DNA of 44,517 nt from Patescibacteria group bacterium (GTDB lineage: Bacteria > Patescibacteriota > Minisyncoccia > Minisyncoccales > Staskawiczbacteraceae): contig JBBTQJ010000020.1 of NCBI GenBank assembly GCA_038065755.1, positions 1-44,517 of the forward strand. Direction: 5' to 3'. The notes beneath the pieces are model-generated. The model had not been told where the DNA came from and did not search any database. It saw only the letters and a list, made by a program, of their open reading frames with translations. The position numbers were made by a program, and so were the translations under genes. This document shows, in pieces, positions 5,828-42,087 of the stretch (the first letter of the stretch is position 1; every line of letters starts with the position of its first letter).

Positions 5828-7159
5828 TTAAAACCTGTCTGCTAATTTATAAATATCGCCGGCGCCCATTATTATTAAAACATCTATTTCTTTTATGTTT
5901 TTTTTAACAAAACTTTCAATTTCATTTGTCGCACAATAAAAAATGCTCTTCCGATGAATTTTTTCAACAAGTTTTTGCGAATTTATTTTCCTGCTTATTC
6001 CTTTTTCTTCCCGGCCGGCAACGTCATAAATATCAGTGATTATAATGTTGTCAACCGGCGCCAAGCGAAAAACTTTAACAAAATCCAAAAATAAATAATG
6101 TGTTCTCTGGCGCTGGTGCGGTTGAAAAACGCACAAAATTTTCTTGTTTAAATACTTTTCTCTTGCGGCTTTCAACGTTGCCGAAATTTCATTGGGATGA
6201 TGGGCATAATCGGAAATAACTATTATTTTTTTGCCGTTAACTTTGGCTTTTTTCTCTTCAAACCTTCTCCATGTTCCTTTAAATTCTGAAAGCGCTTTAA
6301 AAATTGTTTTATCTGGAATTTTTAATATCCTTGATGCCTGCAAAGTGGCTAAAGCATTAGAAACATTATGCTGTCCGGGAACTTTTATAATCTTTTTTAT
6401 TTTTTTTGTTTCATTGTCGTTGCGGGCGAAGCGAAACAATCTCAACCGCGGGGATTGCTTTATCGCTGCGCTCCTCGCAATGACGCTTAAATTTTTATCG
6501 TCGCCGTTAAAAACTAAAAATCCGTCTGCCGGCAGCCGCATAATAAAATTTTTAAATGCTTTTTTGACATTGGCAAACGATTTAAAATAATCCAAGTGTT
6601 CTTTGTCTATATTTGTAATCACAATTATATTAGGCGAATAATGCAAAAAAGAAGAGTCATATTCGCATGCCTCAATTACTAAAAACCTGCCCTTTCCATT
6701 CCTAAAATTACCGCCCCCGAACTCTTTGACTTTTGTGCCTACAATAACAGTAGGGTCAAGCCCGGCCTTAATCAAAACCAGAGCAATTATTGCGGTTGTG
6801 GTGCTTTTGCCGTGAGCTCCCGCAACAGCAACGGTAAAATATTGTTTTGTCAGCTCGCCAAGCGCTTGGGGATAGCTTTGCATTTTAATGCCCAATTTTT
6901 TTGCTTTTTTATATTCTAAATTATCAGATTTTACTGCCGGACTGTAAACAACTAAATCAATATCTGGCTTAATATTTTCTGCTTTTTGCCCGATATTTAT
7001 TTTTATTCTTTTGTCCGCCCGTAGGGGCAGGTTTTTCAAAAAATCTGTAGTTTCTGAAGCAGCCAAATCAGACCCCGAAACTTCGTGGCCTTTTGAAAAA
7101 TAATACTGAGCCAAAGCCGACACCCCAATCCCCCCAATGCCAATAAAATATATCTTCAT
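5828..7159 (-). CDS. murC: UDP-N-acetylmuramate--L-alanine ligase carrying an in-frame palindromic-repeat insertion
   Basis: N-terminal GIGGIGVS Rossmann motif; GAHGKSTT P-loop; Mur ligase middle and C-terminal domains. Repeat-encoded segment IARSAAIKQSPRLRLFRFARNDN. Confidence 0.9.
   Translation of the reverse strand: MKIYFIGIGGIGVSALAQYYFSKGHEVSGSDLAASETTDFLKNLPLRADKRIKINIGQKAENIKPDIDLVVYSPAVKSDNLEYKKAKKLGIKMQSYPQALGELTKQYFTVAVAGAHGKSTTTAIIALVLIKAGLDPTVIVGTKVKEFGGGNFRNGKGRFLVIEACEYDSSFLHYSPNIIVITNIDKEHLDYFKSFANVKKAFKNFIMRLPADGFLVFNGDDKNLSVIARSAAIKQSPRLRLFRFARNDNETKKIKKIIKVPGQHNVSNALATLQASRILKIPDKTIFKALSEFKGTWRRFEEKKAKVNGKKIIVISDYAHHPNEISATLKAAREKYLNKKILCVFQPHQRQRTHYLFLDFVKVFRLAPVDNIIITDIYDVAGREEKGISRKINSQKLVEKIHRKSIFYCATNEIESFVKKNIKEIDVLIIMGAGDIYKLADRF
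6411..6485. repeat. 'cgcaatgac' imperfect palindromic element, copy inside murC
   Basis: tcattgtcgttgcgggcgaagcgaaacaatc ... gattgctttatcgctgcgctcctcgcaatgacg. Its arms match those of the element at 31610-31692. Confidence 0.8.
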
Positions 7160-7177
7160 AAATATATTATAGTTATT

Positions 7178-7771
7178 TTAATCTTTTAAAATATGCGATT
7201 CTAAAATTGTATAAACTGGCCCTCCGCGTTTTAATTCTGACTCCATTATTTCAACAGATTCAACAGAAAACAATAAATCTATATTTTCATCAACTTCCGG
7301 CCTTTCTTCGGGCTCAATTTTTTTCCATTCCCATTCTAAAATTCTGGCCAAAGTGGCATGTGGAACAAACTTTCTGTTTTCTGGCGTAAAACGGACCGAC
7401 TCTAATAATGACTCTTGCAAATCATTTTTCAAATCGGCCAGCTCTTTAACATCTTGGCCTATTGCCCAAATCATTTTCGGGGTTTTCGGGGTCAGACGAG
7501 GGTCAGACCCCGGCCTGACCCCGCCGTATGCAATTTTATTTAGATTTATTGAAAAAGAGCCGTATCTCTTGGCTACTTCTTTTACAACCATGCAAACTTC
7601 GCCCAATTCCTCGTCTGTTAAATAACCCAAAAACTCCAGAGTAATATGAATATTCTCCTGGCTCACCCATTTTGCCGGAAGCTCCTGCCATTTTTTTTGG
7701 TAAGAAGCCAACTTTTTTTTAACATCTTCGGGTAAATTTATAGCAATAAAAATCCGATGTCTTTTGTTCAT
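7178..7771 (-). CDS. thpR: RNA 2',3'-cyclic phosphodiesterase / 2'-5' RNA ligase family (2H)
   Basis: Two HxT motifs (HITLEFLG, HATLARI); 197 aa. Confidence 0.8.
   Translation of the reverse strand: MNKRHRIFIAINLPEDVKKKLASYQKKWQELPAKWVSQENIHITLEFLGYLTDEELGEVCMVVKEVAKRYGSFSINLNKIAYGGVRPGSDPRLTPKTPKMIWAIGQDVKELADLKNDLQESLLESVRFTPENRKFVPHATLARILEWEWKKIEPEERPEVDENIDLLFSVESVEIMESELKRGGPVYTILESHILKD
7478..7526. repeat. GC-rich hairpin element in-frame inside thpR
   Basis: cggggttttcggggtcagacgagggtcagaccccggcctgaccccgccg. The gggtcag/ctgaccc stem encodes GVRPGSDPRLTPKTP. Confidence 0.6.
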
Positions 7772-7823: not shown

Positions 7824-8507
7824 ATGAATAAAGAAATAGCGAAAATTTTTAATGAGATTGCCAAGCTTTTGGAAATCAAGGGCGATAGCGCTTTTCATAT
7901 TTTTCCATATAAAAAAGCGGCCTCATATTTAGAAAATTTGAAAACCGATGTTTTTGAAATTTATAAAGAAAAAGGGGTTGAGGGATTAAAGGTTCCAAAA
8001 ATAATCGGAGATAAAAACGCAAAAAAAATTGAAGAGTATATAAAATCCGCCAGCCATGGCGGGGGCAAAATTAAATATTATGAAGAATTAAAACAAGAGA
8101 CGGCCATAAAACAGATAATAACCCAATACTTTAAATCCAAGGGATTATCCTTGCAAGAACTGAAAGAAAATGCTAAAAAGAGAAAGATAATATATTCCAG
8201 ATTCACCAAACCCGCAAAACAGCTTTTGGAGCTGGCCGGTTCAATTGAAAAAGCAATAGAGGCCTTAAACAAGGTGGCTGAATGGGCAAATACAAGAAAA
8301 CTAGACTACGCCATTGAAACAGTTTTTAAAAAATGGCTGGAATTAGACCGTTTAAAACCTAAAGAAATTGTGAAAAAACCATTTTACAAAGGCGACCCTA
8401 TGGTTTGGTCAGAATCAAAGAAAAAATGGTTTGTCATTTCCAAATACGGCGAGTGGCTGGAATTTGCCGACAAAAAAGAAACCATAGAGTGGCGAGTAAT
8501 TGAATAA
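7824..8507 (+). CDS. hypothetical protein with PolX-like N-terminal helix-hairpin-helix segment
   Basis: NKEIAKIFNEIAKLLEIKGDSAFHIFPYKKAA resembles the PolX/Pol-beta 8-kDa domain. The rest is not recognised. Confidence 0.5.
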   Translation: MNKEIAKIFNEIAKLLEIKGDSAFHIFPYKKAASYLENLKTDVFEIYKEKGVEGLKVPKIIGDKNAKKIEEYIKSASHGGGKIKYYEELKQETAIKQIITQYFKSKGLSLQELKENAKKRKIIYSRFTKPAKQLLELAGSIEKAIEALNKVAEWANTRKLDYAIETVFKKWLELDRLKPKEIVKKPFYKGDPMVWSESKKKWFVISKYGEWLEFADKKETIEWRVIE

Positions 8508-8520
8508 ATAACTTTTGATT

Positions 8521-8626
8521 AGTCAGAAAATGTAATTTTGAAAGACCCCCACAGCCCCGCCCCAGCGGGGCGAGGACAGAGCCCCGCCAAGGCGGGGCGT
8601 GTCTGAAAAAATTACATTTTCTGACT
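8521..8626. repeat. 106-bp compound palindrome (19-bp perfect outer stem plus two GC hairpins)
   Basis: agtcagaaaatgtaatttt (8521-8539) pairs with aaaattacattttctgact (8608-8626). Inner hairpins gccccgc-ccca-gcggggc and gccccgcc-aa-ggcggggc. Confidence 0.8.
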
Positions 8627-8641
8627 AAAATTATTTAAACT

Positions 8642-9202
8642 ATGTTGACGCATACTGATTTAAAAAAAGGAGTGCAGTTTATTTTTGAGGGACAGCCCTG
8701 GGAGGTTTTAGAGGCCCAGGCAATGAAAATGGCCCAAAGAAGGCCTGTAATACAAAGCAAAATAAGAAACCTGATTGACGGCCGGGCGCAGGAAAGAAAC
8801 TTTCAGCAGGGAGATATTTTTGAAGAAGCCAGCCTGGAAAAAAAAGAGATTAAATTTTTGTACCAAAACAAAGGCCAGTACTTTTTTTGTGAAAAAAACG
8901 ACCCTTCAAAAAGATTTTCTTTTACAGAATCGCAAATTGGCGTCCAGGCAAAATATTTAAAGCCAAATGAGTTTGTAACGGGAATTGTTTTTGAAGAAAA
9001 AATTATAAATTTTAGCCTGCCTATAAAGGTTCAACTAAAAGTCAAAGAGTCTGCCCCCGGGGTCAAGGGCGACCGGGCGCAAGGCGGAACAAAAGAAGCA
9101 ATATTAGAATCTGGCGTGGCCATTCAGGTTCCCCTATTTGTCGAAGAAGGCGACATTATTGAAATAAACACCGAAACCTGCGAATATGTAAGACGGGTAT
9201 AA
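8642..9202 (+). CDS. efp: elongation factor P
   Basis: 186 aa, EF-P-like across all three domains. Confidence 0.9.
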   Translation: MLTHTDLKKGVQFIFEGQPWEVLEAQAMKMAQRRPVIQSKIRNLIDGRAQERNFQQGDIFEEASLEKKEIKFLYQNKGQYFFCEKNDPSKRFSFTESQIGVQAKYLKPNEFVTGIVFEEKIINFSLPIKVQLKVKESAPGVKGDRAQGGTKEAILESGVAIQVPLFVEEGDIIEINTETCEYVRRV

Positions 9203-12110: not shown

Positions 12111-12692
12111 TTAGTTGGTTACAATTAAATCTATTAACGCACTTTTGCCAAAGCTTGTAACTCTTATTTTTAATCCAGCGGAAATTCTTGAAACCTCGTA
12201 AATTTTTGCGCAGGGAATAGGAGCAAAATCCGGCTTTAGCAGATTTCCGCATAAATTTTTTTCTGGCAGCCATTGGTCAACCCCGTTCATTGGAACATAA
12301 TTTCTTCCTTCGGAATCCACTATGTTTTCAATATCCCAGTTGCCGCTCCTGGTGTTTTCTTTTTCTTTGTTTTGCGCCGCTACGGTTACTTTAATAAATT
12401 TTTCTGTGGTTTTTATATCTTCCTGCCATTGAGGATTTTTACTTTGAGACCCCTTTAAAACACTGCCGAAATCTTTTGCTTCCTGAAATATAATCCTAAT
12501 GCCTTCTATTGTTTGTTCGTAAATGGGCTGAGGAACTATATCGTCTGGCGGACGGGTGGATTTTGGCGGGTTTTCAGCTATTCTTATTATAGCATAAGAA
12601 ATTGCCACCGCCACCAAAATTATTATTGCTATTATTAAAAGCGTTCTTGACGCCGCCACTCCAGATGATTTGTTTATTTTGTTTTTAAACAT
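12111..12692 (-). CDS. membrane-anchored extracytoplasmic protein (DUF4352-like)
   Basis: N-terminal TM anchor followed by a beta-rich ectodomain. First gene of the ATPase operon. Confidence 0.5.
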   Translation of the reverse strand: MFKNKINKSSGVAASRTLLIIAIIILVAVAISYAIIRIAENPPKSTRPPDDIVPQPIYEQTIEGIRIIFQEAKDFGSVLKGSQSKNPQWQEDIKTTEKFIKVTVAAQNKEKENTRSGNWDIENIVDSEGRNYVPMNGVDQWLPEKNLCGNLLKPDFAPIPCAKIYEVSRISAGLKIRVTSFGKSALIDLIVTN

Positions 12693-12821
12693 ATTAAAAG
12701 AGTTAAAAGTCTAAAATCAAAAGTTAAAAATATAATATTAAGTTTAAAATTTAATACTTTTAATTTTTGACTTTTAACTTTTAATTTAATAAGTCTGACT
12801 ATTTATTTATTTTACCACACT

Positions 12822-18288: not shown

Positions 18289-18340
18289 AATTCCCTCCTT
18301 TTCTATTGTCAACGAACACCTGAAAGAACATATTAATTAT

Positions 18341-18501
18341 TAGACCTGTTGCGAAATAAGATTCGCAACGAAATTTTCAGATTTTGAAGCGAAAATTTGA
18401 TAAAATGAGGAGGTTTGCCTATGGCAAGCCGACGAATTTTAGCAAATTTGTAGCCAAAATATGAAAATTGCAGTAGAAATATTATTTCGCAACAGGTCTA
18501 T
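18341..18501. repeat. 161-bp long imperfect palindrome, family C copy 1 (pyrB 5' region)
   Basis: Perfect 19-bp terminal stem tagacctgttgcgaaataa/ttatttcgcaacaggtcta. The internal core matches the element at 43875-44044. Confidence 0.85.
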
Positions 18502-18502
18502 T

Positions 18503-18550
18503 ATTCTATTCTTTATTTTAAAAATATCAATAGTTTGTCGCATAATATAA
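18503..18550 (-). promoter_or_regulatory. promoter (TTGATA-16-TAGAAT) with upstream TGCGACAAA motif
   Basis: tatcaa 18525-18530 rc and attcta 18503-18508 rc; motif tttgtcgcataatataa at 18534-18550. Confidence 0.5.
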
Positions 18551-18557
18551 ATATATT

Positions 18558-18869
18558 TTAGTTTTTAATTCCTGTGATTTCAATTTCTGTGTACGGCTGT
18601 CTGTGGCCGATTTTTCTGCTGTATCTTTTTTTCGGCTTATATTTAAAAACAATTATCTTGTCACCTTTTGCATGCTTTAGCACTTTTGCCGAAACATTGG
18701 CTTCTTTCACTGTCGGATTTCCTATATCAATTTTTTTGTTTTTTTCTATCAACAAAACATCAGAGAAGACAATTTCTTCCCCTTCTTTTTTTTCTATTTT
18801 TTCAATTTTTAATTTGTCTCCCGGTTTGACAATGTATTGTTTTCCGCCGGTTTTTATAACAGCTAACAT
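18558..18869 (-). CDS. rplU: 50S ribosomal protein L21
   Basis: MLAVIKTGGKQYIVKPGD... is a typical L21 sequence. Confidence 0.9.
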   Translation of the reverse strand: MLAVIKTGGKQYIVKPGDKLKIEKIEKKEGEEIVFSDVLLIEKNKKIDIGNPTVKEANVSAKVLKHAKGDKIIVFKYKPKKRYSRKIGHRQPYTEIEITGIKN

Positions 18870-18896
18870 GGTATTTGAATTTTAGCAAAATATATT

Positions 18897-25284: not shown

Positions 25285-25638
25285 TTATTTTGCGGCTGCA
25301 AGAGGGTCGTCTAATGTTTGTATTTGTATATATTTTATTTTTTTGGTTTTTTCAAAGCTTAATTCTTTGGTTTTAGTTTCCAAATTGCCCATAAATCCGC
25401 TCTTGGCAAAATCTACTTCCAAATTTTTATTTTTCTGCAAAAGATTGTTTTGCTGTTTTTCATAATTTTTAATCAAGTAAGCTCCCCTTGTCAACTCGTT
25501 AATGCTGTATATGTAAAAAAATAATGAAAACACTATCATAATGAAACTAACAAAGCAAAGAGAAGGAAATTTTAATATTTTTGTTTTGCTCTGCGCCTTG
25601 TTGTTTATATGAAAATATTTTAACATTGCTGTTGTCAT
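25285..25638 (-). CDS. ftsL: FtsL-like cell-division membrane protein
   Basis: 117 aa, single TM segment plus coiled coil. Lies between rsmH and ftsI, with an ATGA overlap with rsmH. Confidence 0.6.
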   Translation of the reverse strand: MTTAMLKYFHINNKAQSKTKILKFPSLCFVSFIMIVFSLFFYIYSINELTRGAYLIKNYEKQQNNLLQKNKNLEVDFAKSGFMGNLETKTKELSFEKTKKIKYIQIQTLDDPLAAAK

Positions 25639-26546
25639 ATCGGTTTTATTGCGGCTCTTAATTTTGCCGACCTTGACCTTGGGTTTATTTTTATTTCCTC
25701 AAAATCAGCCGTTATCGGCTTTTTAGTTAATATTTTTAATGCTTTATTTTTTTCTTCTTCTTTAAAAAAGTTTTTAACAATTCTGTCTTCTAAAGAATGA
25801 AATGAAATTATTACTGTTCTTCCTCCGGGAGCCAAAACCGAAATAATTTGAGGCAAAACTTTAATCAGATTATTCAACTCGTCGTTAACTTCAATTCTCA
25901 AGGCCTGAAATATTCTTGTTGCGCAGTGAATTCTTCCACGCTGAAATTTTAAGGGAACCGCTTTTTTAATGATTTTAACCAGATGAAGGGTGCTTTCAAT
26001 TTTTTTAATTTTTCTCTCTTCTATGATTTTATTTGCAATTTGCCTGCTAAACCTTTCTTCTCCGTATTCTTTAAAAATTCTTTCTAAATCATCTTGCCTA
26101 CACTCGTTCACAATTTCCTCCGCTGTTAAATATTTTTGGTTTTTGGTTTTTGGTTTTTGGTTTTCTGTGCCGTATCTCATATCAAGTGGCTCGTTTTTTA
26201 AAAATGTAAATCCCTTGCCTGAGTTTTCCAGCTGTTCTGACGAAAATCCCAAATCCAATAAAATTCCGTTCACCGGCTCAAACTTTTTCTCTTCAATTAT
26301 ATTTTTTAAATTAGAATAAGAATCGTTTGTTAAAATTATTCTTTCTTTGAAATCCGCCAACTGTAATTTTGTATTTTCTATTTGACTGGGATCTAAATCA
26401 ATTCCTAAAACTTTTCCATATGGCCCTGTTTTTTCTAAAATAAATTTTGTATGCCCGCCCTGCCCTATGGTGCAGTCAATAAAATTTTCGTTGGGCTTTG
26501 GGTCTAAATATTTTATAACCTCTTTTGTAAGAACCGGAACGTGCAT
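25635..26546 (-). CDS. rsmH: 16S rRNA (cytosine1402-N4)-methyltransferase
   Basis: MHVPVL..., GQGGH, GFSSEQL and PLDMR motifs. Confidence 0.9.
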   Translation of the reverse strand: MHVPVLTKEVIKYLDPKPNENFIDCTIGQGGHTKFILEKTGPYGKVLGIDLDPSQIENTKLQLADFKERIILTNDSYSNLKNIIEEKKFEPVNGILLDLGFSSEQLENSGKGFTFLKNEPLDMRYGTENQKPKTKNQKYLTAEEIVNECRQDDLERIFKEYGEERFSRQIANKIIEERKIKKIESTLHLVKIIKKAVPLKFQRGRIHCATRIFQALRIEVNDELNNLIKVLPQIISVLAPGGRTVIISFHSLEDRIVKNFFKEEEKNKALKILTKKPITADFEEIKINPRSRSAKLRAAIKPI

Positions 26547-26575
26547 TATAGTTTCAATTATTTTTAATCCATTCT

Positions 26576-26662
26576 AAGCGAGGCAATAAATTTTTCGAGC
26601 GCAAGGGCTGGCTCCCCTGAAAGAGAGTATCCCTCGCCGAGAAAAATTTGATTGCCGAGCGT
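26576..26662 (-). repeat. intercistronic structured element, family B copy 1 (mraZ-rsmH spacer)
   Basis: The 20-nt 5' block aagcgaggcaataaattttt and 3' block gagaaaaatttgattgccgagcgt are shared with 36873-36951. The blocks are mutually complementary and the centre is variable. Confidence 0.8.
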
Positions 26663-26664
26663 AG

Positions 26665-27096
26665 CTATATACCCAAGGGCCCTAATTTTGAAACAATCTC
26701 CTCTATTCCCTTTTCTGCTTTCTTTCTGTATTCTTCCCATTTTTCCGCATCCCAAATTTCTAATCTGTTTGACAATCCGCACACAACCACGCTCTTTTTT
26801 AAACCGGCATAATTTTTTAAATAATCAGGAATAAGTATCCTGCCCAATTTATCTAAAGCAACCTCCATGGCGCTTGCCAAAATAACCCTGGGAAGAGATC
26901 TGGCCTCGCTTTGCGATATGGGGAGATTCCCCAATTTTTCAGACATTATCTGCCATTCTTTTTGTGTATAAACAACCAAACAACTATCAATGCCTTTTGT
27001 TATTATCACCTTATCTCCCAATTCTCCCCTAAATTTAGCTGGCAAAGCCAATCGTTTTTTATTGTCAATTGTATGTTCGTATTGGCCAATAAGCAT
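26665..27096 (-). CDS. mraZ: transcriptional regulator MraZ
   Basis: 143 aa; MLIGQYEHTIDNKKRLALPAKFR; duplicated SpoVT/AbrB-like halves. Confidence 0.9.
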   Translation of the reverse strand: MLIGQYEHTIDNKKRLALPAKFRGELGDKVIITKGIDSCLVVYTQKEWQIMSEKLGNLPISQSEARSLPRVILASAMEVALDKLGRILIPDYLKNYAGLKKSVVVCGLSNRLEIWDAEKWEEYRKKAEKGIEEIVSKLGPLGI

Positions 27097-27202: not shown

Positions 27203-27511
27203 CACTTTTTATATATATCCCATTTTGTTCGTAAATGAGCATATTTTTCCACTCTTTATCCACACCCCACATATTATAATTTCATCACATAATAAAACAC
27301 ATCCACGCATCAACGCGTAGATGTATTTGTCGCATAATAAAACTTTTGCGAAAAAAACATGCCCTTATGTGTTTGCTATTCGCCCAAAGGATATAACACT
27401 ATAAATAACTATAAATAAAAAGTAATAATATAAAATCTGCCAAAACTACTACGATCGTAGTTTTTTTGTCAAATTTTGTTCTTAAAATATCGGATAATAA
27501 TAGTTTTACGT

Positions 27512-31199: not shown

Positions 31200-31582
31200 A
31201 TAAAAATAAATAATAATCCGCCTATTATAATAAAGGGAATTAAAAGCCATAATAAAATTATGACAGCTCCTGCTAAAAAAATAATAATTTGTCCCAAAAT
31301 TCCTGTTATAATCAAGGCAATTCTTAATAAAAAACCTATAATCCTTGAAAAAATATTGGAAACCAAGGCGTTAAAAAACTCCCCTACTTCAAATATATTG
31401 GGATATTTCCAGTTATATCTTCTCCATGGAGAAAAAAGCGTTTTAAAAAGTATGTGGACTGAAAAATAATTTAATCCGAATAAAATATAATTTTTCCAAA
31501 CTTGTATCAAAAAATCCGGCATTTCATAAAAATGCCACACCATCCAAGAAAGTATTATATTTTGCTTTTCTGACGCTTCCAT
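31196..31582 (-). CDS. small polytopic membrane protein, translationally coupled to the AAA+ gene
   Basis: 128 aa, 3-4 TM segments. Its TGA stop overlaps the downstream ATG. Confidence 0.5.
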   Translation of the reverse strand: MEASEKQNIILSWMVWHFYEMPDFLIQVWKNYILFGLNYFSVHILFKTLFSPWRRYNWKYPNIFEVGEFFNALVSNIFSRIIGFLLRIALIITGILGQIIIFLAGAVIILLWLLIPFIIIGGLLFIFI

Positions 31583-31609
31583 AGTTAAATAATTTACAAC
31601 TTCACCATT

Positions 31610-31692
31610 TTGTCATTGCGAGGAGCCACAGCGACGAAACAATCTTTTTAATATTTTTGAGATTGCTTCACCTGCGGGCTCGCAATGACGAA
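31610..31692. repeat. 'cgcaatgac' imperfect palindromic element, intergenic copy
   Basis: gtcattgcgaggagccacagcgacgaaacaatc ... gagattgcttcacctgcgggctcgcaatgac. Confidence 0.8.
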
Positions 31693-31709
31693 ACATGCAT
31701 AAATCGTGA

Positions 31710-32051
31710 TTATTTAATCATCTTAATCCCCAGTCCTGCTATCTGCCCTCCCCCCAAAATCAAAATTCCCGCCAAAATTGACCAGCTTATCAAATTCAAA
31801 AGATCAATTATGGCGCTGGCCGGAATTATCTGGCCTATCTGTTGTTTTACGGCTTCTTCCATTTGTTTTTGCAATTGCTCTTGTAAATTCAAATTCTTGT
31901 TGCTTCCCGGTATTTCTGAAACTGGCTGTGTTTTAAAAACCAAGGGCGCAGAAATTTTACCAATAAAAATATTATACGACTGAAATAGTGTCCAGCCAAT
32001 TATTATCAACCCCGCTATTAATAAAACATACCCCAAAATTTTATTCACCAT
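31710..32051 (-). CDS. small membrane protein
   Basis: 113 aa with TM helices at both ends. Confidence 0.45.
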   Translation of the reverse strand: MVNKILGYVLLIAGLIIIGWTLFQSYNIFIGKISAPLVFKTQPVSEIPGSNKNLNLQEQLQKQMEEAVKQQIGQIIPASAIIDLLNLISWSILAGILILGGGQIAGLGIKMIK

Positions 32052-32144: not shown

Positions 32145-32813
32145 TCACCTTTCGTTATCTTCAAACACGTCTTCTACTGTTTTTTTAACAATATCTGTAA
32201 ATTTATCCCAATCCGGTTTTATCCCAATTTTTTCTTTTTTTATTTCTTCGGTAATCTTTTTGAATTCTTCGCCCTTTTCAGAAAAAAACTTTTTTCGCCT
32301 TTCTTTTAATAATATATCTTTTTCTTCTTTTGTTAAATTGTCTAAGGCGCCCGGCTCCAAATACATTTCCTTACTTAAATCAGTTGCTTGCATATAAAGA
32401 TCTCTTATCTTATCAAAAGATTGCTTAATTTTTAAAGACGTTTCTGGGTTGTCTTCATAATATTCGCCAAGATGTTTTTGCAGATATTCCCAGCCCCTAT
32501 CCCAAGCCCTTTGTTCTTCTGAACGAACGGCTTGAAAATTATCCAAATCAGCGTCGTAATTTTTCCCCTCTTCAATAAGATGACCGACCTCGTGGCTGGC
32601 AACGGCAAAGGAAATCGCCTCGTCGGAATCTGGCAAATAAATGTCATCGGGCGAATAGGCTCTTCCCCACAGCTCACTGTCAAAAGAAGGGATTTCTTTA
32701 ACTTCTTGCGGCGCATTGCTGGACTTTTTGATAATAATCACTGGTTTTTCTTCTTTTTCGGGACTTTCTCCTTTGGGGTTTTCTTTAGAATTAAAAAATT
32801 TTTCTGAAAACAT
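32145..32813 (-). CDS. putative zinc metallopeptidase (HExxH)
   Basis: HEVGH motif in a 222-aa acidic protein. No further family assignment. Confidence 0.45.
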   Translation of the reverse strand: MFSEKFFNSKENPKGESPEKEEKPVIIIKKSSNAPQEVKEIPSFDSELWGRAYSPDDIYLPDSDEAISFAVASHEVGHLIEEGKNYDADLDNFQAVRSEEQRAWDRGWEYLQKHLGEYYEDNPETSLKIKQSFDKIRDLYMQATDLSKEMYLEPGALDNLTKEEKDILLKERRKKFFSEKGEEFKKITEEIKKEKIGIKPDWDKFTDIVKKTVEDVFEDNER

Positions 32814-32903
32814 ATTTATTTTTATTTGTGATAGCTTATGTCAAACCTAACCCGTCTCTTAATCTAACTCTTTTATTATTTGTCGCATAATAAATACTGG
32901 GTA

Positions 32904-34625: not shown

Positions 34626-34785
34626 CTCTTTTGCCTCCCAAAAAGATTTGAAAAGAACCAAATAAAAATTAACAAAAAATTAGAAAAATGTCAATATTTG
34701 TCGCACAATAAAATACGGGTAAAACAATAAAACAACGGCTTATTTAATTTTAACTTTTTATGCAACGGATTCAAATTATTGAATT

Positions 34786-36454: not shown

Positions 36455-36862
36455 TTATTTTATCTCAACTTTGGCGCCGGCGGTTTCAAATTTTTTCTTT
36501 ATCTCTTCGGCTTCTTCTTTTTTAACGCTTTCTTTAACAAGTTGGGCTGTTCCAGCTGCCGCCGCGTCAACTAAATCTTTTGATTCTTTTAATCCTTTTG
36601 CCGTAACATCTCTTACCGCTTTAATAACTTCAATTTTTTGAGCCCCTACTTCTTTTAATTCAACATTAAAAGAAGTTTTTTCTTCTACAAGGGTGGCCGC
36701 TCCAGCTGAACCTGCCACAGCTACCGGAACCGAAGCCGAAACGCCAAATTTATCTTCTAAAACTTTTACCAGTTCCGCCAATTCTACAATTGGCATTTTT
36801 TCTATTTCTCCAACTAATTTTTCAAATTTAGCTGACACTTCAACTTTTTTTTCTTCTGCCAT
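36455..36862 (-). CDS. rplL: 50S ribosomal protein L7/L12
   Basis: Typical L7/L12 N-terminal dimerisation region, Ala-rich hinge and C-terminal domain. Confidence 0.95.
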
Positions 36863-36872
36863 ATTTTTTTAT

Positions 36873-36951
36873 AAGCGAGGCAATAAATTTTTTGAAGGCC
36901 TCAGGACACGAAGTGCCTGATAGCCGGAGAAAAAATTTGATTGCCGAGCGT
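36873..36951 (-). repeat. intercistronic structured element, family B copy 2 (rplJ-rplL spacer)
   Basis: Same terminal blocks as 26576-26662, with a different apical hairpin (tcaggacac-gaa-gtgcctga). Confidence 0.8.
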
Positions 36952-36963
36952 TTAATTGTAATT

Positions 36964-37467
36964 TTATTGTTTTTCTTTATTTTCTCTTATTTTATCTAAC
37001 ACCCTCACAAAGCTTGCTATAGGGCCCGAAAGTGAGCCGACCAATCTGCTTAATAATTCAGGTCTTGGCGGTATGCTGGCCAAAGCCAAAACCCTGTCTT
37101 TTTCTATAAATTTATTTTCAAATAATCCGCCTAAAATTTTAAAATTTTCCTGCTCTTTAGCAAATTTGTTTGAAATTCTAGCCGGAGCAATTTCGTCGTC
37201 TATGCCGAAAACCAATGCCAGCTGACCGGGAATATTTTCTTTTATTTTCTGCCAAAAAGAAATGTTTGACTGGCCAAAGGCAATTCTTACCAATGTTTTC
37301 TTGGCGATTTTTAAAGAGCAACCGGCTTCTTTCAAATTCTTTCTTAAACCAAACATATCTTTTGAGCTTACTTTGGAAAAATCAACAAAAACCAATGATT
37401 TTTGTTTTGAAATATTTTCTTTTAAGCTATTAATTTGATTTTGCTTTTGTTCTTTTGTTAATGCCAT
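36964..37467 (-). CDS. rplJ: 50S ribosomal protein L10
   Basis: 167 aa, L10-like, directly upstream of rplL. Confidence 0.9.
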   Translation of the reverse strand: MALTKEQKQNQINSLKENISKQKSLVFVDFSKVSSKDMFGLRKNLKEAGCSLKIAKKTLVRIAFGQSNISFWQKIKENIPGQLALVFGIDDEIAPARISNKFAKEQENFKILGGLFENKFIEKDRVLALASIPPRPELLSRLVGSLSGPIASFVRVLDKIRENKEKQ

Positions 37468-37587
37468 ATAATAAAAAATCTGCTTACGCAGACAAATTAA
37501 AAATTATTTTAATTTTTAACCTCGGCAGGATTTATTCCCTTGACTACACTCGGGACACCTGCTGTCTGCGGCTTAATTAATTCTATA
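37468..37587 (-). promoter_or_regulatory. rplJ leader with terminator/antiterminator alternative (L10-leader-like)
   Basis: TCTGC-GTAA-GCAGA plus U6 (37479-37492 rc) just before the ATG. Upstream CCGCAGACA can pair with TGTCTGCG. Confidence 0.55.
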
Positions 37588-37593
37588 TAATAT

Positions 37594-39786: not shown

Positions 39787-40266
39787 TTATTTGTTCTGTT
39801 CAGGGGCGCAGCAATATCTGCATAGCACCCCTTTTTTATTACTCATAAAATCATTAATCATTTCTCGGGCACCCTGTCGTAGCCAAAGATTAAGCGCTTT
39901 TTCAGGGTTCATCCATTGATAATTACCCACCTCTTTATTTTTTGAATTTTCTGAATCCGGAAGATAGGCATTGTTTGCCTTAATAAGAAAAAGTTTAACC
40001 CAGACGCCAGAAACAATCCGATAATCCCCAATGTATGCTTTAAGCACACCGTCAATAGGAAGGTCGAGCCCGGGAAGTTCTTCGCCAATCAAACGCACAA
40101 CGGTGGAATAATTTGACTCATTGGGCTTGGATGTTTCCATTGGAATAGAAAACATCCCAGAGTATTTGCCAAAATGCGGCTTTGATTCGTGCTCTTGTAA
40201 AACAAGAATCTTCCCTTCCGGATTCTGGACAATCAATGCCACACCACGAACGCGTTGAACAGTCAT
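39787..40266 (-). CDS. Nudix-family hydrolase (divergent Nudix box)
   Basis: E-x7-RLIGEELPG box; 159 aa; strong GGAGGT SD; GC-rich relative to the window. Confidence 0.55.
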   Translation of the reverse strand: MTVQRVRGVALIVQNPEGKILVLQEHESKPHFGKYSGMFSIPMETSKPNESNYSTVVRLIGEELPGLDLPIDGVLKAYIGDYRIVSGVWVKLFLIKANNAYLPDSENSKNKEVGNYQWMNPEKALNLWLRQGAREMINDFMSNKKGVLCRYCCAPEQNK

Positions 40267-40293
40267 TCCTCACCTCCTACCTCCTTTTTATAG

Positions 40294-40992
40294 TTAGGCT
40301 CCAAAACGGCGCTCACGTCCCTGAAAATCTGCCACAGCCTCTTCAAGATCCTCGGGCGTAAACTCTGGCCAAAGCTTTTTCAGAAAAACCATCTGGGCAT
40401 CCGCAATATCCCACATCATAAACCCAGCTGAAAGATGCGGCTCCCCTCCTGTGCGAATTAGAAGATCTACAGGAGGCAAATCTTTAGTTAAAAGCTGTCT
40501 TTTAATCATCTCTCTGCTAACGATGAAAGAGCTATCCTTTTTAGCTTCATCGGCAACCATCTGAAATACCTGAAGCATTTCTTCTATCCCATCATAAGCA
40601 ATAAGGAAATTAAGCATGCCACGCTTGTGCATAGCTGTTGTTTTAACCGCTTCCTTTATGTTTTGTTGGGCCTCTTCGCTCAAGAACGAAGACCAAAACC
40701 CTAAAACGCGAACCCGAATCTGATGCTGATGAATGATCTGACTCTTTGCAAGAGCGCGGAATTGATCGGCAAATAATTTGTCAAGAAAGTTGATTTCTTC
40801 TGAAGGACGCTTTGTCAAATTAGTCATTGAAGCGCCCCAGAAAGTGAAACAATCAATCTTTAGCTCAATTATTTTCTCAACGAGCTGCCCCAACACTTCG
40901 CCGCCTTTTTTATGCCCTGCTATAACAGGGAGCCCATGCATTTTAGCCCAACGGCGATTCCCGTCTGGAATGACTGCTACGTGGAAATTCAT
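40294..40992 (-). CDS. uppS: undecaprenyl-diphosphate synthase (cis-prenyltransferase)
   Basis: IPDGNRRWA and RTGGE...LS motifs. Confidence 0.9.
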   Translation of the reverse strand: MNFHVAVIPDGNRRWAKMHGLPVIAGHKKGGEVLGQLVEKIIELKIDCFTFWGASMTNLTKRPSEEINFLDKLFADQFRALAKSQIIHQHQIRVRVLGFWSSFLSEEAQQNIKEAVKTTAMHKRGMLNFLIAYDGIEEMLQVFQMVADEAKKDSSFIVSREMIKRQLLTKDLPPVDLLIRTGGEPHLSAGFMMWDIADAQMVFLKKLWPEFTPEDLEEAVADFQGRERRFGA

Positions 40993-41004
40993 TTTTTTCT
41001 CCTT

Positions 41005-42087
41005 CTAAAAAGTCCGTTCCACGATATAGTCTGCCAATTCTTCAAGAACCTGCTTTGTATCTGCGCCAATAGGCAGCTTTTTGAGTTCTACTTTCCCGTC
41101 CTCTACTAAAGATTTAGCACGCGAACGAGCGTAATCGAGGGCGCTGCTCAGCCTCATAATTTCTCTAACCTCTTCAATATCAGCCGGACTAACTTGAGGA
41201 TTGCCAAGCAAAAACTTTAGCCGTTCACGCTGAATTGCAGTACCTAATCTGTAAGCTGCCACAGTAAGCAATGTCTGTTTTCCTTCTTTGATATCAGAGG
41301 TAACAGACTTGCCCAATTCTTCCTCGGTCCCAAAAACGCCGAGGATATCATCTTGAATTTGAAAAGCAATGCCCACTGGGATAGCATACCTACTTATCTT
41401 TTCTAATAAATTTTGGTCAGCTCCTGCCAAGATTAACCCAACATGAAGTGGACCCTCAATTGTGTACTTGGCGGTTTTTAAAAGGTAAATCTGCATTACT
41501 GATTCTTCAGAGACTTCCTGCTCAAGGGGCAAAACAACATCAAGCCCTTGGCCGATTACCGTATCTCTGCCTATCTTATACATCTTTTGAAATGCCTGTA
41601 CTATCCTCTCTGCTGGCAGATTGGCCAAAGTTAGTGCTTCAGTAGCCATCACGCAACTCAAATCGCCAACCAATATTGCCATAGAGTGGCAAAAGTGCTG
41701 ACTTTGGGCGCTGTTTTCAAAAACTTGACCAGACCAAGCTTCAAACATTTTATGCATGGTAGGCCGAGCTCTTCTGATATCAGACAAATCAATGATATCG
41801 TCGTGAATTAACAAAAAATTGTGCAGTAACTCAATTGCAACTGCCGCTGAAAAAATATCCTCTGATTTCTCTCCACCGCCAGCCTGATATCCAAGTGCCA
41901 CGAGAACCGCACGGATTCGCTTTCCGCCCCCAACTGAAAAATCAATCATTTTTTCAGTTAAAAGTTGACCCATGGTGTCTATTTCTGTAAATTCCCCGAG
42001 TTTCTCTTCAAGATACCGGTTAAAATAAGGCTCGAAAGCCACCTTAAACTCTTTAAAATACTGCTGAATTCTCTCTGACGTTTCCAT
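41005..42087 (-). CDS. trans-polyprenyl diphosphate synthase (FPP/GGPP synthase family)
   Basis: First DDxxD-type motif HDDIIDLSDIRR and second motif QIQDDILG. Confidence 0.85.
   Translation of the reverse strand: METSERIQQYFKEFKVAFEPYFNRYLEEKLGEFTEIDTMGQLLTEKMIDFSVGGGKRIRAVLVALGYQAGGGEKSEDIFSAAVAIELLHNFLLIHDDIIDLSDIRRARPTMHKMFEAWSGQVFENSAQSQHFCHSMAILVGDLSCVMATEALTLANLPAERIVQAFQKMYKIGRDTVIGQGLDVVLPLEQEVSEESVMQIYLLKTAKYTIEGPLHVGLILAGADQNLLEKISRYAIPVGIAFQIQDDILGVFGTEEELGKSVTSDIKEGKQTLLTVAAYRLGTAIQRERLKFLLGNPQVSPADIEEVREIMRLSSALDYARSRAKSLVEDGKVELKKLPIGADTKQVLEELADYIVERTF

Follow-up and report, generated by a model that had tools for sequence, protein, structure and literature searches.

A lineage-restricted family of intercistronic hairpin repeats in Candidatus Staskawiczbacteria that turns over among close relatives

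We describe here a short palindromic element that occurs twice in a 44,517-nt contig of a Patescibacteria group bacterium of the Staskawiczbacteraceae (JBBTQJ010000020.1, assembly GCA_038065755.1; the window, by which we mean this whole stretch of DNA), once between mraZ and rsmH and once between rplJ and rplL. A sequence-only reading of the window, made without database searches, had singled out these two spacers as holding a conserved structured element inside operons and had suggested a role for it at the RNA level. The two copies belong to a lineage-restricted, previously undescribed family of hairpin repeats, of an otherwise known kind, in Candidatus Staskawiczbacteria, a group of groundwater bacteria that are uncultured. 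The explanation that we favour, with some reserve, is that the element is a non-autonomous mobile palindromic repeat, comparable to REP, ERIC and Correia elements or to miniature inverted-repeat transposable elements (MITEs), which is co-transcribed with its neighbours as an intercistronic hairpin and whose effects on RNA are secondary.

Within the window the repeat is sharply defined. The 20-mer AAGCGAGGCAATAAATTTTT is found exactly twice, at 26576-26595 and 36873-36892, as is the 19-mer AAATTTGATTGCCGAGCGT, at 26644-26662 and 36933-36951, so that the two shared blocks lie where the sequence-only reading had placed them and are confined to these two sites. Neither has a further match in the window at up to three mismatches (chance expectation 0.06 and 0.04, respectively), and a gapped pattern that combines both blocks has two matches in the window compared with 0.00 expected. 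The blocks had been described as complementary to one another, and a long imperfect hairpin in which GGCAAT pairs with ATTGCC next to an A/T helix is predicted in both copies; whichever strand is folded, the RNA energies lie between -29.7 and -38.7 kcal/mol and the z-scores between -3.4 and -6.6. Folding also bears out the GC-rich hairpins that the blocks were said to enclose, and the apical modules of the two copies have no sequence relation to each other. Pfam identifies the neighbours as MraZ, RsmH, L10 and L7/L12, which agrees with the proposed location in spacers between co-oriented genes, and the open reading frames (ORFs) at 26564-26782 (minus strand) and 36693-36920 (plus strand), previously set aside as reading through the repeat, are spurious, each being a mechanical frame that overlaps the element together with out-of-frame or antisense parts of real genes. 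One correction is needed. The description of the sequence was right, and the strand was not: mraZ, rsmH, rplJ and rplL all lie on the minus strand, and the quoted plus-strand letters are therefore the complement of the mRNA and antisense to it, the unpaired base in the stem being G on the plus strand and C in the mRNA.

Across the family, a constant foot carries an exchangeable apex. The elements are 39-100 nt long, with divergent relatives of up to ~150 nt, and on the non-mRNA strand the consensus foot reads 5'-AAGC-GA-GGCAAT-(G)-AAATTTTT ... AAAAATTT-ATTGCC-GA-GCG-3'. Every copy has the same order of parts, beginning with a GC pair (the AAGC at the start of the foot pairs with the 3' GC) and continuing through a 2x2 GA/GA mismatch in C-GA-G context, the GGCAAT/ATTGCC helix, an irregularity, and a 9-bp A/T helix. 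The irregularity is an unpaired G or, in a common variant, a single T.G or G.T mismatch; the equivalents on the mRNA strand are a UC/UC loop, an unpaired C, and C.A or A.C mismatches. Above this stem the apex ranges from a loop of 2-3 nt to a structure of ~55 nt. When 94 distinct copies were typed by their apices, a minimal apex with a loop of 2-7 nt was counted in 4 copies (elements of 39-47 nt), a type A hairpin with a C-GAA-G cap in 22, a type B apex in 22, a type C extended hairpin of ~50 nt in 29, and other modules in 18.

The pairing proposed from the two window copies is kept in the further ones. Standard pairs make up 93.4% of the basal stem and seven pairs have changed on both sides, values that 0 of 500 shuffles reached, and slid controls fall to 38-62%. 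Compensatory variants of the foot replace GGCAA/TTGCC with GACAA/TTGTC or GCCAA/TTGGC, and in the A/T helix a T-A pair is exchanged for C-G in ~43 copies, a change that the pairing analysis undercounts because the model alignment mis-registers the variant that lacks the bulge; pairing and covariation at pairs 17/99 and 18/98 are understated through the same mis-registration. Compensatory change extends into the apical modules as well, for example from CTGGT/ACCAG to CAGGT/ACCTG.

Further copies were found in number. An exact scan with the 20-mer over contigs representing one genome per species gave 22 loci, ~15 of them with the partner block, and all of those with both blocks are in metagenome-assembled genomes (MAGs) of Ca. 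Staskawiczbacteria or Patescibacteria. A gapped scan on the GC-rich 10-mers alone was swamped by chance matches from GC-rich genomes, and a loose fuzzy-regex census was discarded for its excess of false positives; the AT-anchored gapped pattern used instead returned 67 stretches, nearly all from MAGs labelled Staskawiczbacteria or Patescibacteria, with several Saccharibacteria labels and one Solirubrobacteraceae label as exceptions. The Solirubrobacteraceae-labelled carrier is L034 (CAVRQK010000009.1, 449 kb; L-numbers designate loci fetched from related genomes) and the Saccharibacteria-labelled carriers are L030, L223, L225, L233, L251, L256, L257, L261 and L263. The odd-phylum labels, or the binning, of these low-G+C carrier contigs are probably wrong.

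A covariance model built on the basal stem (R1) was then applied to 74 sources totalling 539 kb and found 95 copies at 54-84 bits, below which there is a clear gap down to 36 bits or less. The 95 copies come from 27 assemblies, as judged by accession prefix, plus the window, where copy 1 scores 72.6 bits at 26576-26663 and copy 2 scores 74.6 bits at 36873-36952. Weaker R1 matches within Staskawiczbacteria loci are to larger, multi-hairpin relatives that share only GCGAGG...CCGAGC with the main family. In 1.12 Mb of sequence around rsmH from 80 other Parcubacteria there was a single significant match (L147, 35.6 bits), a divergent member of 147 nt located exactly between mraZ and rsmH. Rfam 15 has no match over either window copy at the gathering score or at E <= 5, and among the matches listed at E <= 1 for five loci, which together contain 16 copies of several types, there is none to an element-like family. 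No copy was found in viral contigs, phage records or plasmid records, and we found no description of such elements in bacteria of the candidate phyla radiation (CPR) in the open literature.

The copies are neither randomly placed nor randomly oriented, which is what the sequence-only reading had expected of them: they are intergenic, and in 85 of the 87 cases that could be determined the element shares its strand with the nearest ORF upstream of it, taken in its own sense direction. For 74 of the 95 copies both neighbours are on its strand. Seven junctions have a downstream neighbour encoded on the opposite strand; there the element is sense to the gene before it, which shares its strand, and in several of the seven it abuts that gene's stop codon (for example in L225, L222 and L238). 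The minority strand holds ~10% of coding sequence in these loci, so that two antisense cases in 87 represent a deficit (p = 0.006), and both are doubtful, the ORFs concerned being 291 and 578 nt away. In L235, two copies 7.5 kb apart have opposite orientations, each sense to its own neighbour; this locus and the minority-strand cases indicate that orientation tracks transcription rather than, or besides, replication, and they disfavour a replication-strand cause.

In about half of the copies the element is separated from the stop codon by 0-8 nt, and in about half the next start follows it by 5-21 nt. Spacers that lack the element are often no longer than 5-40 nt in these genomes, and such proximity to stop and start is therefore to be expected of any intergenic insert and is not by itself evidence of function. 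A motif resembling a Shine-Dalgarno sequence precedes ~5% of 425 genes and 0 of the 37 genes directly downstream of an element, and the -20 to -1 region of ~460 genes (from the window and 74 related loci) is A/U-rich. The flanking genes are assorted housekeeping genes with no common theme, those upstream coding for RmuC, a CsoR-like repressor, ComM, L18, a sigma factor, S5, NusG, PduL and the ATP synthase c subunit. One copy adjoins the gene for RNase III, and another lies 82 nt upstream of a same-strand RNase P RNA in L006. That RNA (6965-7398, plus strand, bacterial class A) scores 88 bits compared with an Rfam gathering score of 100, which suggests a divergent CPR form.

The family's turnover, its nesting and its identical copies are characteristic of a repeat that moves or actively recombines, and not of a fixed operon-specific regulator. 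At the rplJ-rplL site the element is present in the window and in L018 and missing from L005, L150 and L153, and the nearest relative recovered (L257, whose RplL is 87% identical) has an empty spacer of ~40 nt; the mraZ-rsmH spacer, for its part, is 5-15 nt long in most of 76 relatives. The hairpin is not conserved at either the mraZ-rsmH or the rplJ-rplL operon. Flank-anchored comparison showed many orthologous junctions to be occupied in some genomes and empty in others, and this is so even between L237 and L228, whose flanks are roughly 90-95% identical: only one of the two has an element at the junction that follows atpE, and at a second junction L237 has a type C module and L228 a type B module, on different variants of the basal stem. 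In the source metagenomes, contigs from related strains skip the element at both window loci, and the sequence that replaces it at rplJ-rplL matches the empty spacer of L257. Many different flanks abut the element arms in these metagenomes, and when contig depths are summed, the arms of copy 2 stand at ~5-8x the level of its flanks, with a smaller excess for copy 1.

Evidence of spread also comes from single genomes. Copies that are 100% identical stand at unrelated loci within one MAG in the pairs L245/L252 (97 nt) and L008/L013 (76 nt); no target-site duplication flanks either pair, and the identity stops at AAGCG...GAGCG. The module of window copy 2 recurs identically at an unrelated locus in a different MAG (L022). 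In L131, L243, L129, L130, L066, L237 and L018 a copy has a second copy, or half of one, inside its apex or next to it, and the orphan arms seen in these loci and others belong to partial or nested copies adjoining complete elements, gene-enclosing pairs of arms not having been sought systematically. What had been proposed as an RNA-level role is thus upheld in part: the element is structured, lies within operons and must be transcribed there, but the empty sites, turnover and nesting speak against a conserved cis-regulator of mraZ-rsmH and rplJ-rplL. Two further junctions in the window have orthologues that carry the element: ~18857-18881 corresponds to an occupied junction in L002/L034 and is empty in the window, and 31570-31710 corresponds to an element-bearing junction in L257 and holds ~140-160 nt.

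The two strands of the element are not equivalent. For 40 of 45 copies the non-mRNA strand has the better RNA minimum free energy (mean difference 4.7 kcal/mol, Wilcoxon p = 2e-8), the alifold consensus energy favours the same strand for types A, B and C, and with DNA parameters it is the better one in 8 of 10 pairs, by 0.7-2.6 kcal/mol. Unpaired bases of the hairpin are 73% purine on the non-mRNA strand; the plus strand of the window as a whole is pyrimidine-rich. Tandem C-GA-G/C-GA-G mismatches and C-GNA-G loops are stabilising motifs, particularly in DNA, and in this family the mismatch is conserved and the loops are numerous. Integron attC sites reportedly show the same asymmetries in their bottom strand, which is the recombinogenic one (PMC5027507). 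We lean towards the non-mRNA strand as the more relevant of the two.

If the element is indeed a mobile repeat, its spread without target duplication, its nesting at the apex and its strand asymmetry together suggest that what is recognised would be a folded single strand, perhaps by an enzyme of the HUH or recombinase type. Copies would then survive only in those places, and in that direction, in which they are tolerated by compact operons that do without Shine-Dalgarno sequences, and the sense-only orientation could stem from strand choice by the enzyme, from counter-selection in transcripts, or from both. As the copies are embedded in operons, they must be transcribed, and a transcribed copy would form a hairpin of -20 to -43 kcal/mol a few nucleotides past a stop codon and 5-30 nt ahead of a start codon that lacks a Shine-Dalgarno sequence. 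Such a predicted hairpin would probably modulate the processing or decay of the mRNA, for instance via RNase III, and might influence re-initiation at the next gene. An RNA-level function of the element is thus plausible, and the turnover data suggest that RNA effects are consequences of its presence and not the reason for it.

Several observations weigh against mobility as the explanation. A tblastn search of 539 kb of element-bearing genome fragments with an IS200-type TnpA, for which the query sequence was approximate, gave no match, no transposase or recombinase could be tied to the element, and neither a transposition intermediate nor a precise excision footprint came to light. The appearance of mobility could also arise from gene conversion between copies, and the strict orientation and closeness to stop codons are equally to be expected of a selected RNA element. 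The features that make up the strand asymmetry are mostly inherited from the family consensus and therefore amount to few independent events; G.U-type mismatches, which stand at ~2:1 by raw counts, are neutral when distinct contexts are counted (11 on the non-mRNA strand and 9 on the mRNA strand), and it is on the mRNA strand that UNCG-like loops and G.U pairs appear in type B apices and in some of type C. The sole TnpA-like fragment in all the DNA that was fetched (L219 8353-8550, IS200/IS605-type, tblastn E = 4e-6) is in a Parcubacteria genome without the element.

Comparison with known repeats places the element close to several of them without equating it with any. It resembles the REP and BIME palindromes of proteobacteria, which are associated with the Y1/HUH protein RAYT, in that both are short, imperfect, multicopy palindromes of transcribed extragenic spacers, often situated just past stop codons; both are non-coding, lack target-site duplications, have a conserved irregularity in the stem, and are known or expected to form hairpins in mRNA once transcribed. 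Unlike REPs, however, the element has no 5' tetranucleotide of the GTAG type (its feet are AAGC-GA-GG / CC-GA-GCG, complement CGC-TC-GG / CC-TC-GCTT) and no sequence similarity to them, is longer, has an exchangeable apical module, and keeps strictly to the direction of transcription, whereas REPs are found either way round and often form inverted pairs. Nor was a RAYT gene found in the fragments examined, the IS200 TnpA query being only approximate. With ERIC/IRU sequences, Correia elements (NEMIS) and MITEs it shares the character of a dispersed intergenic inverted repeat of ~70-150 bp that is co-transcribed and polymorphic for insertion among strains. Transcripts of ERIC/IRU and Correia/MITE repeats fold within the mRNA and are processed by RNase in known cases. 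The element differs from MITEs in lacking a target-site duplication and, in the fragments fetched, a matching autonomous insertion sequence, and from all of these repeats in forming a single hairpin throughout instead of a shared core between two terminal repeats, in having its interior swapped for unrelated modules while the termini stay constant, and in keeping a single orientation. The likeness to the intercistronic RNase III sites of phages such as T7, in which a long hairpin between the genes of one transcript likewise has an internal loop, goes no further than placement and shape; in the element the loop that is conserved reads UC/UC on the mRNA strand.

The most serious rival, in line with the sequence-only reading, holds that the element, read on the mRNA strand, is a cis-acting RNA structure of the host - an RNase III-type site, a barrier to 3'-to-5' decay of the upstream gene's message, or a device coupling or adjusting translation of the downstream gene - that has been recruited repeatedly because it is useful. 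We regard this as possible and yet distinctly the less probable account. It would explain why orientation is strictly sense even beside minority-strand genes and at junctions where the downstream gene is on the opposite strand, why about half of the copies begin within a few nucleotides of a stop, and why a leader of 5-30 A/U-rich nucleotides is left before the next ATG. Shine-Dalgarno sites are found in only 5% of 425 genes, and structure near start codons should therefore matter in these genomes; the hairpin is stable as RNA and its pairs covary, C(UNCG)G-like loops and G.U pairs are present on the mRNA strand of type B and some type C apices, RNase III is encoded, and unrelated long hairpins fill the same two spacers in other Parcubacteria. 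Against this, there is no conservation at the level of the junction, sites being empty in close relatives and in co-occurring strains, and the flanking genes share no theme. Where spacers are 5-40 nt long, any insert comes to lie close to both a stop and a start. In 40 of 45 copies the mRNA strand gives the weaker fold; pyrimidines make up 73% of its unpaired bases, and its conserved loop has UC/UC in place of the stable GA/GA. Nesting, and the recurrence of identical copies at unrelated loci, speak for a spread at the DNA level.

It is tempting to consider the resemblance to integron attC sites more closely. These are defined by extrahelical bases, an unpaired central spacer and a variable terminal structure, with AAC/GTT as their only universally conserved sequence (PMC5027507). 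Like them, the element is a hairpin defined by structure, located immediately 3' of an ORF in fixed orientation, with a purine-rich, better-folding non-mRNA strand (PMC5027507). One form of the idea is that the foot is the recognition site of a strand-selective, structure-specific recombinase or HUH enzyme acting on single-stranded DNA, an attC-like system that lacks the integron consensus and works at gene boundaries all over the core genome of a CPR bacterium, in which the modules would serve as tiny cassettes and the enzyme's choice of strand, on top of selection on the mRNA, would impose the orientation; this we think improbable. We give still less credence to a second form, in which the copies are attC-like recombination sites whose folded non-mRNA strand is used by a strand-selective recombinase for exchange of modules or adjacent genes. 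Paired outer boxes, an unpaired GA/GA spacer, an extrahelical base and a terminal structure that varies from 2-3 nt to complex all fit, as do the position just downstream of an ORF in one orientation, the more stable and purine-rich bottom strand, the differing modules at one site in close relatives and the lack of target duplications. The consensus foot, however, has no RYYYAAC/GTTRRRY core boxes and hence not the AAC/GTT that lies within them, and the copies do not form cassette arrays: they are scattered among essential, syntenic core genes (such as rplJ/rplL, mraZ/rsmH, atpE, rpsE, rplR and nusG), in an order that genomes with and without the element have in common, and two direct copies recombining with each other would remove genes that the cell needs. 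Nor did an attI/intI context come to light, intI itself not having been searched for.

That the conserved unit acts as double-stranded DNA, as the palindromic operator of a dimeric protein or as paired DNA-uptake sequences, is very improbable: the 10-mers GCGAGGCAAT/ATTGCCGAGC are conserved in inverted pairs, and Patescibacteria encode competence machinery, but the spacing between half-sites varies from ~20 to 70 nt, compensatory changes preserve pairing within one strand, orientation is strand-specific relative to genes, and the density in the window is ~1 per 22 kb with no single or intragenic 10-mers. A DNA-uptake sequence was rejected for the further reason that the arm motifs are found in the 44.5 kb only within the two elements, even with three mismatches allowed. 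An intrinsic terminator was discarded as well, as on both strands a T-run precedes and an A-run follows the GC-rich apex and no T-tract comes after the whole hairpin. By inspection, a promoter does not fit either, since no -10 box stands at a suitable distance from the TTGCCT of the 3' arm and the ATG is too close; and involvement of a Shine-Dalgarno sequence was dismissed because these genomes hardly use them.

The coordinates of the two window copies, their parts and the neighbouring genes are collected in Table 1.

Table 1. The two copies of the hairpin repeat in the window and the genes around them.
Feature	Position	Strand	Basis and remarks
Copy 1 of hairpin repeat, type B apical module	26576..26662	-	exact blocks; folds; mraZ-rsmH spacer
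Copy 1 arm, plus-strand AAGCGAGGCAATAAATTTTTC	26576..26596	.	sequence, fold, invariant alignment columns; GC foot pair, 2x2-mismatch GA (26580-26581), GGCAAT, A/T helix
Copy 1 apical module, type B, core CCCCTGAAAGAGAG	26597..26640	.	fold, module typing
Copy 1 partner arm, plus-strand GAAAAATTTGATTGCCGAGCG	26641..26661	.	unpaired G 26650; mismatch GA 26657-26658
Copy 2 of hairpin repeat, type A apical module (CAC-GAA-GTG hairpin)	36873..36951	-	rplJ-rplL spacer
Copy 2 arm, plus-strand AAGCGAGGCAATAAATTTTTT	36873..36893	.	GA 36877-36878
Copy 2 apical module, type A	36894..36929	.	identical module in L022 copy
Copy 2 partner arm, plus-strand AAAAAATTTGATTGCCGAGCG	36930..36950	.	unpaired G 36939; GA 36946-36947
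mraZ	26665..27096	-	Pfam MraZ, E = 7e-37; stop 3 nt upstream of copy 1 (mRNA)
rsmH	25635..26546	-	Pfam Methyltransf_5, E = 8e-103; ATG 29 nt downstream of copy 1
rplJ (L10)	36964..37467	-	Pfam Ribosomal_L10; stop 12 nt upstream of copy 2
rplL (L7/L12)	36455..36862	-	Pfam Ribosomal_L12 and Ribosomal_L12_N; ATG 10 nt downstream of copy 2
L10 leader (Rfam)	37464-37589		upstream of rplJ

Other structured spacers are present in the window. A very stable hairpin at 8519-8628 (RNA -67 to -71 kcal/mol, z ~-12.5) lies between the plus-strand genes at 7824-8507 and 8642-9202; like the family described here it has an A/T-rich basal stem (TTAGTCAGAAAATGTAATTTT...) and a GC-rich apex, and its sequence is unrelated. 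It is probably a member of another family of intergenic palindromic elements. Long A/T-rich inverted repeats were also found at 12688-12813, in a spacer between co-oriented minus-strand genes (-24 to -27 kcal/mol, z of -3.9 to -4.7), and at 18323-18518, likewise between co-oriented minus-strand genes, where arms of 64 nt are 75% complementary. The motif TATTTGTCGCATAATAAA occurs three times on the plus strand (27324-27350, 32877-32903 and 34695-34721), ~35-230 nt upstream of minus-strand genes (mraZ and those with starts at 32813 and 34661), and looks like a promoter or operator. The region 40001-42000 has a G+C content of 0.44 compared with ~0.33-0.37 elsewhere in the window.

In other Parcubacteria, enlarged spacers were seen at the same two operons, between mraZ and rsmH in L144, L145, L150, L168, L184 and L186 and between rplJ and rplL in L005, L145, L150, L153, L217 and L220. 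These spacers are 80-200 nt long, as against 5-15 nt in most relatives, and hold unrelated sequences with what, by eye, are long inverted repeats. Intercistronic hairpin inserts thus seem to be a general habit of Parcubacteria.

CPR bacteria have tiny, tightly packed genomes that are thought to be poor in repetitive DNA. The family described here means that dozens of strong hairpins can enter the stop-to-start spacers of essential operons, among them those for ribosomal proteins, ATP synthase and cell division, and that these hairpins, in one orientation only, turn over quickly among close relatives. It offers a natural experiment in how intercistronic RNA structure is tolerated, or exploited, by translation that does without Shine-Dalgarno sequences. 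There is also a practical side, as the elements break assemblies, with contigs ending at their arms, which is relevant to the binning of CPR genomes and to the tracking of strains. Finally, the attC-like anatomy and the strand asymmetry of the element hint at an enzyme that recognises folded single-stranded DNA.

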